A program made the position numbers and the translations under genes. Under the pieces are notes generated by a model that saw nothing but the letters and a program-made list of their open reading frames with translations, was not told the DNA's origin and did no database searches. A stretch of DNA of 64,000 bases from an uncultured Elusimicrobia bacterium (GTDB lineage Bacteria > Elusimicrobiota > Elusimicrobia > 2-01-FULL-59-12), in assembly GCA_963702895.1 (NCBI GenBank), contig OY969767.1:1632001-1696000 (forward strand), written 5' to 3'. Positions 20,112-39,587 of this stretch are shown piece by piece (the first letter of the stretch is position 1; each line of letters starts with the position of its first letter).

Positions 20112-20256
20112 TCGGGGCGTCCTGAGGTGTTGTTTTGTTGTCTATCGGGGTGGCGCCGTTGGTCAACTGGCTCGGGGCGTAGCGTCCCTGACGGTCGCCT
20201 AGCGGCGACCGGAGGGACAGTCCCTACACCCGAAGGGTGTGCGGGACGCAGTTGGT
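20112..20256 (+). pseudogene. Series of tRNA-Pro 5' fragments; the last is interrupted by a hairpin insert at about 20185-20248
   Basis: tcggggcgt (20112), cggggtggcgccgttggt (20146), cggggcgtagcg[insert]cagttggt (20173-20256). Confidence 0.8.
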
Positions 20257-20275
20257 GAAAATGCTGCTGCTGGGT

Positions 20276-20348
20276 CGGGGCGTAGCGCAGTTGGTAGCGC
20301 GCCTGCTTTGGGAGCAGGAGGTCCCGGGTTCAAATCCCGGCGCCCCGA
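20276..20348 (+). tRNA. tRNA-Pro (TGG)
   Basis: Cloverleaf; cctgc-tt-TGG-ga-gcagg; flanked by the inverted pair gctgctgctgggt / acccagcagcagc. Confidence 0.97.
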
Positions 20349-20357
20349 CCCAGCAGC

Positions 20358-20797
20358 AGCGCGGTCGCCAGACTTTTGGCGACAGGTCGCCGGTTCATCC
20401 GCCACACAACGGGCGGATGCCCGACTGTAGTGTGTCGGGCAAATCCGGCCGCCCCGAGTTTTTTTCGGGGCCGGGTTCCGCGCCACTACGTCGCTGGCGC
20501 GCCCGCCAGGATGTAGTGGCGGGAAATCCCGGCGCCCCGACCCAGTAGCGACAAAATAGCGCGGTCGCCAGGTGTCTGGCGACAGGTCGCCGGTTCATCC
20601 GCCACACATCGGGCGGATGCCCGATCGTAGTGTGTCGGGCAAATTCGGTCGCCCCGAGCCAGTTGATGGTGCGGTACCGGGTTCATCCGCCAGACAACCG
20701 GCGGATGCCCGCCTGACGTGTGGCGGGCAAATCCCGCCCGCCACTAAAACACGGCGGGCGCCCGCTGCGGTGCAGTAGCGGGCGGCGCCCCGAGCCA
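20358..20797 (+). pseudogene. Four tRNA-Pro 3' fragments, each interrupted in the T loop by a twin-hairpin insert
   Basis: ggttc[insert]aat...cgccccga at about 20384-20457, 20471-20543, 20584-20657 and 20677-20797. Confidence 0.88.
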
Positions 20798-20878
20798 TGG
20801 GGTAAATTTGATTATCGTCCCCGTAGTACAATGCCCGCCACATGTGCCGAGGCGGAGAGCTGTCTATGGGCCGTTATC

Positions 20879-20950
20879 GCGCCCTTAGCTCAATGGATAG
20901 AGCAGTAGCCTTCTAAGCTACTGATAGAGGTTCGATTCCTCTAGGGCGCA
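20879..20950 (+). tRNA. tRNA-Arg (TCT)
   Basis: Cloverleaf; gtagc-ct-TCT-aa-gctac. Confidence 0.96.
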
Positions 20951-21181
20951 AATTTATAGAGGATCTGAAGGATAACCGATAAGGACCCCCAGGCCCGGTT
21001 GAAGGAACATCATGAAGGTGTTACTCGATCGGCTCGTCCTTATATACCCTTTGAATTAGTCTATACTCAACACTTTGAAGATGCTGCCTTGGCCCGGAAG
21101 CGAGAGAAAATCTTTAAGATTGGAAAGGGAAGGCAGATCTTAAAGAGCATTTGGCGTGAGCATCATTTTCTGGGCCGTTAG
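20951..21181 (+). pseudogene. N-terminally decayed small GIY-YIG nuclease (UPF0213-like)
   Basis: TDKDPQARLKEHHEG...RPYIPFELVYTQHF...ARKREKIFKIGKGRQ; an upstream YRGS is out of frame and followed by a stop. Confidence 0.75.
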
Positions 21182-21244
21182 CTCAATTGGTAGAGCATTC
21201 GCCTCTTAAGCGACAGGTTGCCGGTTCGATTCCGGCACGGCCCA
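21172..21244 (+). tRNA. tRNA-Lys (CTT)
   Basis: Cloverleaf; tcgc-ct-CTT-aa-gcga. Confidence 0.95.
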
Positions 21245-21250
21245 CATTTA

Positions 21251-21354
21251 CAGCAGAGCAGAGAGCAGAGAGCAGAAATACGGCAAACATCTTTTATAGA
21301 ACGGCCGACTCTTGGAGGCCGACCTTTTCTCTGATTTCTGCTCTCTGATCTCTC
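21251..21354. repeat. Inverted heptamer arms (GCAGAGA)n/(TCTCTGM)n with a spacer
   Basis: cagagcagagagcagagagcagaaa ... tttctctgatttctgctctctgatctctc. Confidence 0.8.
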
Positions 21355-21368
21355 ATTTGCCGTTCTTG

Positions 21369-21466
21369 GCGCCCTTAGCTCAATTGGATAGAGCATCTGC
21401 CTTCCCCGCCACTGAGGCGTTGGCGGGTCCGCCAAAGCCATAGTGGCGGAGGAGCAGAGGGTTGGA
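21369..21466 (+). pseudogene. tRNA-Arg(TCG) 5' portion with a twin-hairpin insert inside the anticodon (21405-21450)
   Basis: gcgcccttagctcaattggatagagca-tctgc-ct-TC[insert]G-ga-gcaga-gggtt; 3' end missing. Confidence 0.88.
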
Positions 21467-21475
21467 TCGTTTTGA

Positions 21476-21547
21476 GCGCCCTTAGCTCAACGGATAGAGT
21501 ATCGGTCTTCGGAACCGATGATGAGGGTTCGAGTCCCCCAGGGCGCA
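21476..21547 (+). tRNA. tRNA-Arg (TCG)
   Basis: Cloverleaf; tcggt-ct-TCG-ga-accga; one mismatch in the T stem. Confidence 0.93.
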
Positions 21548-21553
21548 ATTTGT

Positions 21554-21660
21554 GGACCGGTGGCGCCCGCCACTACACCATGGCGGGCGTCCGCCAAGGT
21601 TTAGTGGCGGACGGAATTGGCAGACGCGTCCCGATCCTCGATATGGTTATTGTCGGGACG
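21554..21660 (+). pseudogene. tRNA-Leu 5' fragment with two hairpin inserts
   Basis: ggaccggtggcg[twin hairpin]gaattggcagacgcg[tcccga...tcggga]cg. Confidence 0.85.
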
Positions 21661-21684
21661 TACCGACCGATGAAGCTCGTGCCT

Positions 21685-21767
21685 GGACCGGTGGCGGAAT
21701 GGCAGACGCGCAAGGCTTAGGACCTTGTGCCCGCAAGGGTATGCGAGTTCGACTCTCGCCCGGTCCA
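21685..21767 (+). tRNA. tRNA-Leu (TAG)
   Basis: Cloverleaf with a long variable arm; caagg-ct-TAG-ga-ccttg; upstream of tig, a common position. Confidence 0.97.
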
Positions 21768-21793
21768 AGCACGAACTAATGCCGAGGACGGGA

Positions 21794-21985
21794 CAGACGC
21801 GCAAGGCTTACCTTCGCCTCCTGTATTTTAAGGATGCGATGGCCATCGATAAAACGATCGGCATTCGGCCGATCGTATCGTTGGGGACCTTGTGCCCCAC
21901 TTACGACTGTGGGGCCTGCGCGTTATAGGGAATTGAGGAAGCGCGGGCCCGCAAGGGCTTGCGAGTTCAACTCTCGCCCGGTCCA
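21794..21985 (+). pseudogene. tRNA-Leu 3' portion broken by inserts in the anticodon loop and at the variable arm
   Basis: cagacgcgcaaggctta[insert]ggaccttgtg[insert]gcccgcaagggcttgcgagttcaactctcgcccggtcca. Confidence 0.85.
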
Positions 21986-22031
21986 TTGGGTATTGTTCAC
22001 TCATTTACTGAATACAGCATGAAGGGATTTT

Positions 22032-33402: not shown

Positions 33403-34116
33403 TTAAATTAAGTGCCGCCCACCGTCCACACGAATCGTCTCGCCCGTAATAAAATCGGTCTCGCATAAAAATCGTACAGCCTTCGCGAGCTCTTGCGGAC
33501 CCCCCCATTTCCCAAGTGGCGTGGCCTTCAAGACCGCCTGAAATTCCTTTGACCCAAGACCTTTGGGCGCAAGCAGCGGCCCTGGCGCGATGGCGTTCAC
33601 CAGGATCTGGGGCGCTAACTCCAGGGCCATGGCTTCCACCATCGCCTGGAGGGCTGCTTTGGACGTGTAATAGGCCGCATACCCTTTATACCGGGGCCTG
33701 TGACTGGCACTCGTCCAATCGGTGACATGAACGATGCGGCCCTCGTCGGAGCGGCGCAGATATGGGAGAACACTTGAGGTCACGTTTTGTGCCGCGAACA
33801 CGTGAAGCCTGATATGCTTCTCCCAGGACCCTCGCTCATAGACCGACGCCATGTTCACCAGAATATTGAGGGAACCCAGCTGCGCCTCAATATGGCGAGC
33901 GGCTTTTTCGGCCTGATGAGGACGAATCAGATCGCAGGCGAGCACCATCGTTGGAGCTCCAAAGAGGCGAAGCTCTTGGGCCGTTTCCTCCGCGAGCTTG
34001 CGTGAATGGCTGTAGCTTAAAGCGACGCCACACCCCGCTTGCGCGAGAGAAAGTGCCACAGCCTTTCCCATCCGGGCACCACCCGTGATCCACGCCACTT
34101 TTCCGTTTAAATCCAT
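33403..34116 (-). CDS. SDR oxidoreductase, pteridine reductase / FolM-like
   Basis: TGGARMG, YYTSK, VNAIAPG, VDGG. Confidence 0.88.
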   Translation of the reverse strand: MDLNGKVAWITGGARMGKAVALSLAQAGCGVALSYSHSRKLAEETAQELRLFGAPTMVLACDLIRPHQAEKAARHIEAQLGSLNILVNMASVYERGSWEKHIRLHVFAAQNVTSSVLPYLRRSDEGRIVHVTDWTSASHRPRYKGYAAYYTSKAALQAMVEAMALELAPQILVNAIAPGPLLAPKGLGSKEFQAVLKATPLGKWGGPQELAKAVRFLCETDFITGETIRVDGGRHLI

Positions 34117-34166
34117 GAAGATCTTCCTCTGGTTACAGTTTCAGGGGCAACGCTCCAGCTCGAGAT

Positions 34167-34238
34167 TGGGTCCGGTGGGTTTCGAACCCACGGCCCCCGA
34201 CTTAAAAGGTCGGTGCTCTACCCCTGAGCTACGGACCC
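34167..34238 (-). tRNA. tRNA-Lys (TTT)
   Basis: Cloverleaf on the minus strand, ccgac-ct-TTT-aa-gtcgg; perfect flanking inverted pair gctcgagatt / aatctcgagc. Confidence 0.96.
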
Positions 34239-34256
34239 AATCTCGAGCCAAATTTC

Positions 34257-34291
34257 GCCCCCGACTTAAAAGGTCGGTGCCCTGCCCCTGA
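34257..34291 (-). pseudogene. tRNA-Lys D-arm and anticodon-arm fragment upstream of the intact gene
   Basis: gcccccgacttaaaaggtcggtgc is an exact copy of 34193-34216, followed by a diverged D arm. Confidence 0.85.
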
Positions 34292-34491
34292 CCATCACTT
34301 TACCACGATAGCCGCAACAATTTCCCTTTGATGAAAGCAACTGTACCATCCGGAACTGCTTCTAAAGGACCCTCATTATATAAGATGTATAATGTTTCGA
34401 AATTTAGGGTCGATTCTCGTCAGAGAATGCTCACCCTTCTGTCTGGATCAGCGGCAAACCTCGTTTTCGTTTTGTGGTCTGGGCGCTGCAG

Positions 34492-34578
34492 GCCCCCATC
34501 GACTCGTGGTTAGGTCACAGCCCTTTTCCGCCACTAGGTCGTTGGCGGACCCGCCGCGATGGAGTGGCGGGCAAGGCT
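34492..34578 (+). pseudogene. Outermost tRNA-Glu 5' half with a twin-hairpin insert in the anticodon (34527-34571)
   Basis: gcccccatcgactcgtggttaggtcacagcccttt[insert]caaggct. Confidence 0.88.
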
Positions 34579-34617
34579 CCGCCACATGACCGGCGGATGA
34601 CCAAGAGTTTGTGTAGT

Positions 34618-34667
34618 GCCCCCATAGACTAGTGGTTAGGTCACAGCCCTTTCAAGGCTGTAGGACG
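34618..34667 (+). pseudogene. Middle tRNA-Glu 5' half
   Basis: Exact copy of the first 50 nt of the intact tRNA-Glu. Confidence 0.92.
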
Positions 34668-34701
34668 TAAGAGAAGTCTTCAGTGCGACTGGAATAGGCG
34701 T

Positions 34702-34773
34702 GCCCCCATAGACTAGTGGTTAGGTCACAGCCCTTTCAAGGCTGTAGGACGGGTTCGAATCCCGTTGGGGGCA
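34702..34773 (+). tRNA. tRNA-Glu (TTC), innermost intact copy, no encoded CCA
   Basis: Cloverleaf; cagcc-ct-TTC-aa-ggctg. Confidence 0.97.
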
Positions 34774-34810
34774 CGCTTATAACTCCCAGTCGCACTGAAG
34801 ACTTCTTGAA

Positions 34811-34880
34811 GGGTTCGCCCGCCACACAATCGGCGGGCGAGCGCCTGAAGTGTGGCGCTCGAATCCCGTTGGGGGCACCA
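34811..34880 (+). pseudogene. Middle tRNA-Glu 3' half with CCA and a twin-hairpin insert in the T loop
   Basis: gggttcg[insert 34818-34861]aatcccgttgggggcacca. Confidence 0.9.
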
Positions 34881-35051
34881 CACAAACTCTTGGTCATCCA
34901 CCGGCCGTGTGGCGGACGAATCCCGTCCCGCATCCTTGTAGCTAAGAGTGCGGGACTGTACCGGCTCATAAGCTCGCCCCAGCGAGCGGGTCAAAGGTTC
35001 GGTACGTTGGGGGCATATCGCTCACGAGTCAAGGATGGACATTGGATCATC

Positions 35052-35489
35052 ATGCAACCTCACGATTCACTGATCGCCGAACACAAGAAACTGCGCGCGC
35101 AAGCAGAAACCCTCGAGGTGCTGATGCGCGACGCACCCCAAACACTGGGGGAGGGTCTCGTACGTTTCCAGACCATGCTCCGAGAGCACTTTCAGCGCGA
35201 GGATGTTTACTACCGGGTCCTGGACGGCGATCAGCGGATCGCTGATCGCGGCCTCATCCACCAACTTCGCAACGATCACGCCGCCGTTGTCTTTATCCTC
35301 GAGAGTCTGGCCATCCGGCTCCGAAAAAACGGTTGTGACGCAGATTGGCGGGGCCGGTGGCGGAACTTGATGAATGTTTTCCTGCCCCATTTAGAGAAGG
35401 AAGAGCAGACCCTTTTTCCTCTGGGATGCAAGCTCCTGTCCGAACAAGAGTCCCGCTTCATTGCCGAGCAGATGGCGCCAAGTGACTAG
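35052..35489 (+). CDS. Hemerythrin-like cation-binding domain protein
   Basis: EH...HFQRED...DH...HLEKEEQTLFP; start trimmed to MQPHDSL. Confidence 0.85.
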   Translation: MQPHDSLIAEHKKLRAQAETLEVLMRDAPQTLGEGLVRFQTMLREHFQREDVYYRVLDGDQRIADRGLIHQLRNDHAAVVFILESLAIRLRKNGCDADWRGRWRNLMNVFLPHLEKEEQTLFPLGCKLLSEQESRFIAEQMAPSD

Positions 35490-38180: not shown

Positions 38181-38661
38181 ACCGGATATAATCCTTCGGG
38201 CGACGGCGCAACAGACGCAGCTCCTTCGACCGCAAAGGCCGCTTGACGCGCGCGGGCATCCCCAGGACAAGGGAACGCGGAGGGATCTTCATATTTTCGG
38301 TGACAAGCGCCCCCGCTCCGATGAGGCATTCGTTCCCGATCACACACCCATCCAGGAGAATGGCGCCCATTCCAATGAGACAGAAATCTCCGACGCGCGC
38401 CCCGTGGACGATGGCGCCGTGTCCGACCGTGACCCCTTTCCCGAGAACAACGGGCAAGCGCGGCGAGGTGTGCAGGACCGCGGCGTCTTGCACATTGGAG
38501 CCTTGGCCTATGGTGATGGGTTCGATATCGCCACGGAGAACCACCATCGGCCAGATGGAAGACCCATTCTTCAGGACGACGCGGCCTATGATTTGGGCGG
38601 ATTCATGGACAAAGGCGGTAGGGTGGATCCGGGGAACGTCCTTCCGGAAGGACCGCAGCAT
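38137..38661 (-). CDS. Gamma carbonic anhydrase family protein
   Basis: VLRGD, SNVQD, VGHGAIVHG hexapeptide repeats. Confidence 0.93.
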   Translation of the reverse strand: MLRSFRKDVPRIHPTAFVHESAQIIGRVVLKNGSSIWPMVVLRGDIEPITIGQGSNVQDAAVLHTSPRLPVVLGKGVTVGHGAIVHGARVGDFCLIGMGAILLDGCVIGNECLIGAGALVTENMKIPPRSLVLGMPARVKRPLRSKELRLLRRRPKDYIRYAQAHRSGSRPLPL

Positions 38662-39587
38662 TAGCCCCTCATCAACTTCAGGAGGACCGCTTTTTGAATG
38701 TGCAAACGATTTTCGGCCTGCTCAAAGACGATCGATTGGGGCCCCTCAATGACCTCTTCGGTGATCTCTTCGCCACGCTTGGCCGGAAGGCAATGCAAAA
38801 CGACCGCCTGTTTCTTAGCGACGCTCAGGAGCGCGCTGTTGACCTGAAAGGGCCGAAAGACCTCGCGCCGGCGGGCTTCTTCCGACTCCTGGCCCATGGA
38901 CGTCCAGACGTCGGTATAGAGCACATCGGCGGCTGTGCACGCCACTTGCGGGTCGTGGACGATATCGATGCGCCCTCCGGAGGCCGTGGCCAGGACCTTG
39001 GCCTTGCGCAAGACTTCAGGATCAGGATCATACCCGTTGGGACAGGCCAGCACGAGCTGCAAGCCCATCATGCCGGAGAGCAAAAGCCAGGAATGGGAGA
39101 CATTGTTGGAGTCCCCCAGAAACACAATTTTGAGCTTTCGCAGCTCTGAGAGTTTCCGGTGCGAGCGCTCCCAGAGCGTCATCAAATCCGCGAGCACCTG
39201 GCAGGGATGTTCCGTATCCGTTAAGCCGTTGATCACGGGGATCGTCGTATGCCGAGAGAATTCCTGCACATCCTTATGCTGCCGCGCGCGGATCATCACC
39301 GCGTGAACATAGCGTGTCATCACGCGGGCCATGTCCGGAATGCTCTCGCCGCGCTTCCATTGCAAGGCGTCGGACTGCAGCACGAGCGGAAACCCCCCCA
39401 GGGCTTGAATGCCGGCCGCAAAAGAGACGAGGGTGCGTGTGGAAGGTTTCTCAAAGATCAGCGCGACCGTTTTGCCGCGCAAGGCGCCGGCCTTGAGCGG
39501 TGATTTTTTTAACCGCGCGGCATCCTGAAGAAGCTGCTCCACTTCTTTCGGCGCAAGGTCGGTGATGGAGAGTAAGTCGCGTTTCAT
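38661..39587 (-). CDS. argF: Ornithine carbamoyltransferase
   Basis: STRT, HPCQ, WTSMG, HCLP. Confidence 0.96.
   Translation of the reverse strand: MKRDLLSITDLAPKEVEQLLQDAARLKKSPLKAGALRGKTVALIFEKPSTRTLVSFAAGIQALGGFPLVLQSDALQWKRGESIPDMARVMTRYVHAVMIRARQHKDVQEFSRHTTIPVINGLTDTEHPCQVLADLMTLWERSHRKLSELRKLKIVFLGDSNNVSHSWLLLSGMMGLQLVLACPNGYDPDPEVLRKAKVLATASGGRIDIVHDPQVACTAADVLYTDVWTSMGQESEEARRREVFRPFQVNSALLSVAKKQAVVLHCLPAKRGEEITEEVIEGPQSIVFEQAENRLHIQKAVLLKLMRG

Follow-up and report, generated by a model that had tools for sequence, protein, structure and literature searches.

The 64,000-nucleotide (nt) stretch of DNA analysed here (hereafter the window) derives from an uncultured Elusimicrobia bacterium (contig OY969767.1 of assembly GCA_963702895.1, positions 1,632,001 to 1,696,000) and contains, at 34492-35015, a 524-nt stack of three concentric copies of the tRNA-Glu(UUC) gene, of which the innermost alone is intact. 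As a check on the phylum, the carbamoyltransferase encoded at 38661-39587 was compared with its best relatives, which share 44-53% identity with it and belong to many phyla, with Endomicrobia represented. We term these copies A (innermost), B (middle) and C (outermost), and give positions in the window except for features that lie elsewhere in the genome (Table 1). Copy A scores 68.5 bits against the Rfam family RF00005, is the sole Glu copy above the Rfam threshold for tRNAs and constitutes, according to ARAGORN, the single tRNA-Glu(UUC) gene of the 2.72-Mb genome. It does not encode CCA and shows identity over 72 of 72 nt with the tRNA-Glu of a second genome of the same genus (G003). ARAGORN additionally calls an 87-nt "tRNA-Glu" at 34618-34704, which is composed of the 5' half of copy B and the left arm of A and overlaps the true gene.

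The 5' half of copy B matches A at 50 of 50 nt (52 of 52 counting the two bases that precede it), and its 3' part, which is divided into 34811-34817 and 34860-34880 and carries an encoded CCA, matches A throughout its last 20 nt. Without its two inserts, copy B would be complete and identical to A; the first-pass annotation of this DNA, which had been made from the sequence alone, had proposed that the halves of B join almost exactly to rebuild a tRNA. One G is duplicated at the junction. The T loop of B is occupied by a 42-nt palindromic doublet, with CG duplicated on both sides (34816-17 and 34860-61). Copy C agrees with A at 33 of the 35 positions that make up its first part (two differences), lacks the 12 nt corresponding to positions 43-54 of A and is interrupted between anticodon bases 35 and 36 by a palindromic doublet of 45 nt. 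Both interruptions had been noticed previously and are here redefined as discrete doublets. The first-pass annotation had also placed all the pieces of C, B and A and their spacers where we find them, but it let C end with the 10-nt fragment CGAATCCCGT. This fragment is present, whereas the actual end of C, CGTTGGGGGCA at 35005-35015, had been missed beyond a 78-nt palindromic insert (34927-35004) that has CGT at both of its sides. It is this insert, together with the 3' strand of the C acceptor stem behind it, that brings the stack to its full length.

The spacers between the nested copies form pairs of complementary arms, such that copy A with its arms (unit A) interrupts copy B, and copy B with arms of its own (unit B) interrupts copy C. 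A repeat finder recovered the perfect 21-bp inverted repeat in the arms of A (34672-34692 with 34786-34806) at the coordinates first reported, and a second inverted repeat (I7) extends the acceptor stem of A from -1/N73. The inverted repeat of the B arms runs longer than originally described, spanning 47 nt at 91% (34578-34624 with 34870-34916). In both units the arms are mutually complementary almost to the ends of the insert and are nearly equal in length, with 34 + 37 nt in A and 39 + 39 nt in B. The target duplication of A in B is a single G, or 4 nt on the assumption that GAAG at 34808-34811 arose from GACG by decay.

Folding of 34485-35020 as RNA gave -321.9 kcal/mol, as against -208.6 +/- 6.0 for 100 shuffled sequences (z -18.95), none of which was as stable; the structure of the stack is therefore beyond chance. 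In the predicted fold, three acceptor stems close three concentric shells, so that the concentric hairpin envisaged earlier closes over the outermost copy C too, 34492-34498 being paired with 35008-35014. The whole genome is assembled as one contig of 2.72 Mb. The first-pass annotation had called for reads mapped across the locus. For the inner layer, an independent metagenome provides a contig (run X3, record 17) that extends over 34675-34820 and shows 3 differences; no contig from the four public sequencing runs spans the whole locus. Among the public runs matching the genome, the best DNA run contains 0.13 of the sampled words, and no RNA run is listed. A further metagenome contig (run X1) joins 34923 directly to 35005, with a joint that is ambiguous by 3 nt (CGT), which points to a related strain without the 78-nt insert; going by this one contig at depth 2 (n=1), the insert is therefore a presence/absence polymorphism among close strains.

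Table 1. Components of the tRNA-Glu(UUC) stack, its neighbouring tRNA gene and the small nuclease genes elsewhere in the genome (REP, repetitive extragenic palindrome; ORF, open reading frame)
Feature	Position	Strand	Evidence or remark
Putative promoter-like block, ending in TGTATAAT (34386-34393)	34352-34393	+	Aligns with the block upstream of the un-nested tRNA-Glu of G003
Copy C (outermost, oldest), positions 1-35: acceptor 5' strand, D arm, anticodon stem to second anticodon base	34492-34526	+	
45-nt doublet of two CCGCCAC...GGCGG-type hairpins in the C anticodon	34527-34571	+	
Copy C, positions 36-42, CAAGGCT	34572-34578	+	
Left arm of unit B; outer 18 nt a REP-like hairpin (34579-34596)	34579-34617	+	
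Copy B (middle), positions 1-50	34618-34667	+	
Left arm of unit A, 34 nt	34668-34701	+	
Copy A, intact tRNA-Glu(UUC)	34702-34773	+	Rfam RF00005, ARAGORN
Right arm of unit A, 37 nt	34774-34810	+	
Copy B, GGGTTCG (T stem 5' strand and first T-loop bases)	34811-34817	+	
42-nt doublet in the B T loop	34818-34859	+	
Copy B, rest of T arm, acceptor 3' strand, discriminator, CCA	34860-34880	+	20/20 identical to A
Right arm of unit B; pairing includes ACCA (34877-34880); outer REP-like hairpin (34898-34915)	34881-34916	+	
Copy C, positions 55-64, CGAATCCCGT	34917-34926	+	
78-nt insert of the second palindrome family (TCCCGC...GCGGGAC) in C	34927-35004	+	
Copy C, T-stem end, acceptor 3' strand, discriminator, CGTTGGGGGCA (third copy of the repeat family)	35005-35015	+	
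tRNA-Lys(UUU) (34166-34239) with own piece upstream (34257-34291; positions 13-47, 94%)	34166-34291	-	
Small UPF0213/SLX1-like GIY-YIG ORFs	205875, 580617, 1700967, 1813193, 1813505		Outside the window, directly beside tRNA genes

Nested tRNA genes in the genome and its relatives

A short-word BLAST search of each of the 47 tRNA genes of the genome against its own surroundings detected same-strand pieces of the same gene upstream of 22 genes and downstream of 23, with 11 genes flanked on either side. The first-pass annotation had suggested a search of this kind; own pieces do occur at many genes, a genome-wide extent that the earlier reading had missed. In a stricter count, with a tighter cut-off and flanks of 400 bp, gene order is kept in 63 of 70 pieces, with 27 of 29 upstream pieces coming from the 5' half of the tRNA and 36 of 41 downstream pieces from the 3' half, and a single piece lies on the opposite strand. 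The leader and trailer of 16 of the 47 genes pair over at least 7 contiguous bp (7-16) in continuation of the acceptor stem, as against 0 of 2256 mismatched pairs of flanks. This pairing begins at base -1 opposite the discriminator and takes in CCA where it is encoded. It is associated with upstream pieces (13/16 genes with pairing versus 9/31 without; Fisher p 0.0016) but not with downstream ones (p 0.55).

A doll-in-doll layout similar to that of tRNA-Glu is also seen at Pro-CGG, Pro-UGG, Arg-GCG (with three layers), Tyr, Leu-CAG, Leu-UAG, Ala-CGC, Gly-UCC, Gly-GCC and Glu-CUC. One-sided nests with pairing occur at Thr-UGU and at Lys-UUU, the latter being adjacent to tRNA-Glu and having a leader/trailer pairing of 9 bp, while Leu-GAG (16 bp) and Ser-GCU show pairing without any own pieces. 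Near-equal arms recur at Pro-CGG (25 + 25 nt), Arg-GCG (23 + 20 nt) and Gly-GCC (15 + 17 nt). The target duplication is variable, amounting to 1-4 nt for A in B, 2-4 at Pro-CGG, 7 at Leu-UAG and 0 at Ala-CGC, and the insertion sites are spread anywhere along the tRNA. At Arg-GCG, Ala and Pro, a hairpin takes the place of the anticodon arm in the outer copy. Directly after the left junction of tRNA-Leu(CAG), the final 7 nt of the outer piece recur as their reverse complement (CATACGC tttcta GCGTATG). Tandem arrays of a tRNA 3' end with its trailer are present at Gln-CUG (82-bp period), Val-GAC (120-bp period), Gly-GCC and Phe. The intron mode of ARAGORN called tRNAs at 104287, 1391746 and 2056016; the "intron-bearing" tRNAs at the first two positions contain no palindromic insert and look like chance calls. 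At approximately 2516600-2516830, 15 kb from the nearest tRNA-Ser gene, lie pieces of tRNA-Ser 3' halves full of palindromic hairpins, which may represent an orphaned shell without a live gene.

The arm sequences differ at every unit. Those of A have no second copy in the genome, indicating that they are not repeated leader or trailer sequences, and neither of them recurs outside B, with which two one-sided tandem duplications do not fit. The arms of B likewise do not recur outside C; their inner part is unique in the genome, and their outer hairpin part has matches among the palindrome families described below.

Twelve tRNA-Glu loci were compared, with those of the relatives chosen by similarity and not at random, such that cross-family counts are indicative only. 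Of the layer states that the first-pass annotation proposed to look for, the zero-layer one is found in G003, whose identical tRNA has CCA encoded and shows no leader-trailer pairing, and the one-layer one in G002 (same genus) and G005 (another genus), with one shell each. The outer Glu copies of G002 and G005 have a doublet at the same anticodon position, with different inner junctions and arms. No own pieces were detected at the tRNA-Glu loci of G004, G010, G024, G028 and G035; the locus of G031 has only a 16-nt match inside its tRNA-His gene, that of G037 has an own piece about 1 kb away, and the locus fetched from G001 contains no tRNA-Glu. In each genome the inner and outer copies share that genome's own version of the anticodon stem, which implies either gene conversion between copies or independent origins. 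Pairing of at least 7 bp is present in 11 of 32 tRNAs in loci of the same family, versus 0 of 16 in four other families. Given that the un-nested gene of G003 lacks pairing, pairing is not a native feature of the gene. The block in common with G003 (34352-34393) lies before the outermost copy C, 98 nt upstream.

The relation between native flanks and arms is also apparent at tRNA-Leu(UAG), where the outer copy retains flanks similar to those of G003 and matches it at 38 of 39 positions in its 3' part, and the inner, live unit is situated between duplicated copies of AGACGCG (7 nt). Both arms of this unit are new, and the native flanks remain with the outer copy. This gene belongs to a cluster at 20150-21990 (tRNA-Pro(UGG), Arg(UCU), Lys(CUU), Arg(UCG) and Leu(UAG)) that occupies about 1800 bp here versus 450 bp in G003; the additional length is made up of dead pieces of tRNAs, palindromic doublets, live copies bracketed by hairpins and the remnant of a nuclease gene. 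The tRNA-Pro(UGG) of G003 is itself nested, with arms that resemble the Pro(CGG) arms of the present genome. Four genomes belonging to a single genus arrange the tRNA-Lys(UUU), tRNA-Glu, SDR and hemerythrin genes in different orders and orientations. With respect to the genes around it, the Lys-Glu pair has opposite orientations here and in G003; in G002 Lys is found on the downstream side of Glu, and in G001 Lys adjoins the hemerythrin gene at the locus without Glu.

Palindromic doublets and small GIY-YIG nuclease genes

The doublets in the broken copies belong to a family of GC-rich hairpins with 327 matches in the genome, 104 of them less than 800 bp from a tRNA gene. One form, counted by sequence pattern (GTTCR, two hairpins, CRANYC, with C56-R57 duplicated), occupies the T loop at 23 places near tRNAs, always in dead copies; look-alikes of this form (the 34818-34859 type) were listed only in genomes of the same family. 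Another form occupies anticodon loops or replaces the anticodon arm, and the 45-nt doublet of C matches 17 other places in the genome at 84-95%. A second palindrome family (TCCCG...CGGGA) is the source of the 78-nt insert. Such palindromes also make up the outer ends of the Tyr and Leu(UAG) inserts and of unit B. The genome contains no intact RAYT gene, and its one match to the Y1 transposase domain (PF01797; 23.3 bits) is in a truncated ORF of 84 amino acids (aa).

A search for GIY-YIG domains recovered 10 matches in the genome, one in a 447-aa ORF that is taken for UvrC by its size, and nine in small ORFs. Six of these nine lie less than 350 bp from a tRNA gene, although only 1.2% of the genome is that close (P 1.3e-8 for at least 5 of 8 loci); the other three are far from any tRNA. 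Small GIY-YIG genes adjoin five other tRNA loci of this genome, and their partners include Gln(UUG), Ile/Ala(UGC), where the ORF has an in-frame TGA, Ala(GGC) and Asn (two copies). At tRNA-Ala(GGC) the ORF is placed between a dead and a live copy, while tRNA-Asn has a unit composed of trailer, ORF and 3' piece that is repeated twice, with the reading frame continuing into the 3' piece of the tRNA. Within the window, a frame of 70 codons at 20969-21181 (+), between tRNA-Arg(UCU) and tRNA-Lys(CUU), covers the C-terminal two thirds of a GIY-YIG domain (20.4 bits versus a cut-off of 22.6) and is probably a decayed small nuclease gene; G003 has a 20-nt spacer in its place. In the relatives, 8 of 26 small GIY-YIG loci lie less than 400 bp from a tRNA gene, with Gln-UUG and Ala-GGC as recurring partners. 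The nucleases are about 80-100 aa long, resemble UPF0213 and SLX1 and lack a DNA-binding domain: their closest solved relatives are UPF0213 proteins (E 1e-8), followed more weakly by SLX1 structure-specific nucleases (E 0.02-0.17), and NCBIfam models yielded only sub-threshold matches to group I intron endonucleases (20-22 bits versus a cut-off of 56). A six-frame search of 19 loci, including the 3-kb tRNA-Glu loci of the 12 genomes, found no GIY-YIG domain beyond the known remnant. The genome further encodes three reverse-transcriptase ORFs of 507 aa each (at 230277, 463860 and 1962540) with nearly equal Pfam scores, which are probably copies of one group II intron.

Origin of the nested copies

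In light of the data on arms, flanks and relatives, we propose as the best overall explanation that the stack comprises three generations of a single tRNA-Glu(UUC) gene, each inside its predecessor, to which we assign a probability of about 0.5. A history of nested insertions as such is very probable, and the earlier suggestion that a unit of arm, tRNA and arm was repeatedly inserted into the resident gene holds as the best reading. Under this explanation C would be the ancestral gene, behind the conserved upstream block; unit B, a whole tRNA-Glu between complementary arms in the form of hairpin-shaped DNA, would have been inserted in the middle of a doublet already present in the T loop of C, and unit A, with other arms, would have entered the T stem of B later. 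Each insertion would have broken the host copy yet brought its replacement, which would explain why single-copy essential tRNA genes show no insertions other than self-in-self ones. The dead shells might then have been free to gather doublets, aimed at the T loop (with C56-R57 duplicated) and at the anticodon loop.

The exact start of the pairing at base -1, facing the discriminator, and its extension over CCA where encoded make the 3' flank the most likely template of the left arm. An antisense strand ending at tRNA +1 could fold back on its own acceptor stem, prime itself and copy the 3' flank, and the product would be a blunt hairpin with arms of equal length that could be joined into a break or nick in the cognate gene. 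We consider such a fold-back origin of the arms plausible, at a little under even odds. The strand that folds back might be a cDNA of an RNase P-processed precursor or an intermediate of replication or repair. An RNA whose 5' end is at +1 is the product of RNase P, and the match between this cut and the end of the strand makes a cDNA intermediate possible; we regard an RNA intermediate in the formation of the units as unlikely, and as quite improbable the fuller version in which tRNA genes are renewed via RNA, with a trailer-bearing precursor being reverse-transcribed and its cDNA snapping back to be ligated as a hairpin into the cognate gene. Renewal of tRNA genes as a dedicated process, which the first-pass annotation had offered as one option, is speculation. 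The small GIY-YIG nucleases beside other tRNA genes are a candidate source of the breaks, with their involvement at the tRNA-Glu locus itself being rather doubtful.

As no promoter-like site was found in the stack and a conserved block precedes C, tRNA A probably arises from a precursor of about 520 nt. The block at 34352-34393, by its sequence and conservation, may serve as the promoter. The stack would be transcribed as a single unit from this block and fold into concentric helices, whereupon RNase III, RNase P, 3' trimming and CCA addition could release tRNA A alone. RNase III is encoded in the genome, and the 21-bp and 40-bp helices would, on the predicted fold, probably be suitable substrates for it.

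Several observations weigh against this explanation or parts of it. The zero-layer state of G003 within the genus requires that every layer was lost or that layers were gained independently. Searches for a donor of the arm sequences were negative in the genome and in 40 relatives at the sensitivity of BLAST, the exact 21-mer of the A arm is absent from collections of genome contigs and metagenome contigs, and the arms show no similarity to the native leader and trailer of G003 (shuffle p 0.15-1.0). The A arms do not derive from the trailer of B, though copying from the transcript of B predicts that they should, and they are slightly asymmetric, with an internal loop of 1 nt versus 5 nt and one G-T pair. 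A scan of 34100-35200 for sigma-70 consensus promoters and terminators returned 0 sites. There is no nuclease gene within 1.5 kb of tRNA-Glu in the 12 genomes, and no link was found between the reverse-transcriptase ORFs, which lie elsewhere, and the tRNA loci. At Tyr, Asn and Gly-GCC a further copy of the leader or trailer lies beyond the outer piece, a pattern that fits partial tandem duplication and suggests that more than one process shapes these loci. Finally, upstream and downstream pieces co-occur at a rate near independence (11 seen, about 10 expected).

This near-independence would be expected if the stack had arisen by two independent partial tandem duplications, of the 5' part with the leader on one side and of the 3' part with the trailer on the other, flanking a gene with a native leader and trailer that are complementary by coincidence, and such duplication does fit other loci, such as the trailer at Gly-GCC, the arrays at Gln-CUG and Val-GAC, and the leader that precedes the 5' piece at Asn and Tyr. 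At tRNA-Glu it is very unlikely, as the arms of A are absent outside B and those of B outside C, each layer has its own complementary pair of arms ending at the junctions, and the un-nested gene of G003 has no leader-trailer pairing. Another possibility is error-prone replication in situ, in which a fork stalls in the strongly structured and heavily transcribed tRNA gene and repeated template switches of the nascent strand, folding back on the acceptor stem and re-annealing within the gene, create the arms and duplicated halves in one complex event, much like microhomology-mediated template switching at quasi-palindromes. This would accommodate the exact start of the pairing at the acceptor stem, breakpoints anywhere in the tRNA with target duplications of 0-7 nt, the fold-back signature at tRNA-Leu(CAG) (CATACGC tttcta GCGTATG), and the loci with one-sided nests and pairing (Lys-UUU, Thr-UGU) or with pairing and no pieces (Leu-GAG, Ser-GCU); it also needs no enzyme gene, consistent with there being none at tRNA-Glu. 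However, it predicts that one arm is a native flank, whereas tRNA-Leu(UAG) has both arms new and no tRNA-Glu arm resembles the flanks of G003, and at least four ordered switches would have to be repeated alike at a dozen loci, so that we judge it improbable. A selfish GIY-YIG nuclease element that spreads by break repair along with a replacement tRNA, with the Glu stack being a relic after loss of the nuclease or the result of cuts made in trans, would explain why six of nine small GIY-YIG matches lie within 350 bp of a tRNA, as do 8 of 26 loci near tRNAs in the relatives, and is in line with the remnant at 20969-21181 in the window, the arrangements at Ala(GGC) and Asn, and the similarity to UPF0213 and, weakly, SLX1. 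We hold it to be distinctly unlikely, since the tRNA-Glu loci of 12 genomes, nested ones included, have no GIY-YIG gene, the arms of 34-39 nt are too short for an ORF, deletion of an ORF would not yield complementary arms, three of the nine small copies are distant from tRNAs, and the cleavage specificity is putative.

The integration of islands or prophages by an integrase with subsequent deletion of the interior, or a tRNA-carrying transposon or miniature inverted-repeat transposable element (MITE) moved by RAYT or another transposase, comes to mind in view of tRNA genes being classic integration sites and partial copies common scars, as laid out in PMC9897764; the shells also carry high-copy hairpins, and the insert ends of B, Tyr and Leu(UAG) are palindromic. 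The first-pass annotation had already set the stack apart from attL/attR scars, rightly so, in that pieces lie on both sides, with complementary spacers and no integrase. The pieces keep gene order at a distance of only 15-40 nt from the live copy, with neither an integrase nor an island in between; SDR, hemerythrin and aminotransferase genes are the neighbours, and the interior of the stack leaves no room for an integrase or island genes. A "tRNA-carrying mini-element" in the conventional sense, the other option it had raised, did not stand: terminal repeats are not conserved, the arms being unique and different in each unit, sites fall anywhere in the tRNA, the duplications vary from 0 to 7 nt, and the only Y1 match is a truncated ORF of 84 aa. 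Origins of this type are highly improbable. Still less credible is a spliced or split tRNA with multiple interruptions, be it through bulge-helix-bulge introns of archaeal type or trans-joined halves, in which a single transcript would give rise to several tRNAs, or an assembly artefact. Copy B would indeed equal A if its two inserts were removed, but the host is bacterial, with typical neighbours such as TolB and Maf, and its genome has 0 matches to the tRNA-splicing endonuclease PF01974 in a search that was positive in four archaeal control genomes; in addition, copy C lacks 12 nt, outer copies elsewhere lack the anticodon arm (Arg-GCG, Ala, Pro), and the layers differ among close relatives. 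An artefact is contradicted by the single-contig genome, by the presence of the layout at about a dozen loci and in independently assembled relatives, and by one independent contig. Thus, integrase scars, a fixed-end transposon, splicing of archaeal type and misassembly each fail a direct test.

Known systems and meaning for tRNA genes

The anatomy of the stack is matched by none of the closest known systems. The phage T4 gene for SegB, a GIY-YIG protein, is a free-standing homing endonuclease gene in a tRNA region, and mitochondria of Allomyces have mobile ORFs that carry a replacement end of the target gene. Homing endonucleases are comparable in that a selfish insertion is offset by a spare copy and in that GIY-YIG genes are found beside nested tRNAs elsewhere in this genome; yet none is present at the tRNA-Glu stack, and the nucleases in question, at 80-100 aa, have no DNA-binding domain. 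In the tyrT repeats (rtT) of Escherichia coli, the units start with the last 19 nt of the tRNA and are one-sided and un-nested. The arrays of 3' ends and trailers at Gln-CUG, Val-GAC, Gly-GCC and Phe are reminiscent of these repeats, in contrast to the tRNA-Glu stack, which is nested and has complementary, unrepeated arms. Long complementary sequences beside tRNA halves are known from the split tRNAs of Nanoarchaeum and the multi-intron tRNAs of Thermoproteales. The present stack shares with them halves that lie beside complementary sequences and inserts at non-canonical positions, and differs in belonging to a bacterium without the splicing endonuclease, in its incomplete outer copies and in that the "intron" holds the only working gene. 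The leader-trailer stalks of rRNA precursors offer another parallel, as the long 5'/3' helices would clamp tRNA A in its precursor and RNase III is encoded; unlike those stalks, which are conserved signals, the helices here differ from unit to unit, are absent in un-nested relatives and are accompanied by broken gene copies.

The shell doublets are short GC-rich hairpin pairs in high copy number, as are the REP doublets of the REP/BIME/REPIN type treated in PMC3733652. Unlike REP-RAYT systems, however, they sit at fixed sites in tRNA-shaped sequence (T loop 57/58 with a 2-nt duplication, and the anticodon loop), and the arms of the live tRNA are outside these families. Fragments of tRNA genes have been attributed to integration and to CRISPR in PMC9897764. 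Islands and prophages with a tyrosine integrase, again as presented there, similarly target a tRNA, restore the gene with their insert and leave behind a displaced partial copy. Here, by contrast, the whole tRNA is supplied, pieces lie on both sides, the insert is 140-340 nt long without integrase or cargo, the site is variable and the events are nested up to three deep. Full-text searches of the literature outside subscription journals yielded no description of tRNA genes nested in their own copies.

Genes for tRNAs are regarded as among the most stable parts of bacterial genomes; in this organism roughly one in three consists of stacked dead and live copies, and the stacks vary from species to species within a single genus. 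At such loci, tRNA finders call overlapping or false genes. The sole working tRNA-Glu would have to be excised from a long and, as modelled, tightly folded precursor, placing a demand on RNase III and RNase P. The T-loop doublets and the small tRNA-linked GIY-YIG nucleases provide tractable leads to the enzymes involved. If the stacks are a by-product of repair, they would reflect a mutational process that acts strongly and specifically on tRNA genes and leaves a sequence signature by which any genome could be searched. Renewal of tRNA genes via RNA would instead make the hairpin tRNA cassettes retro-elements of a class not yet described, self-compensating and devoid of ORFs. Should the hairpin-bracketed copy indeed be mobile, it would represent a new type of selfish DNA, one that has no genes and survives by replacing the essential gene that it destroys.

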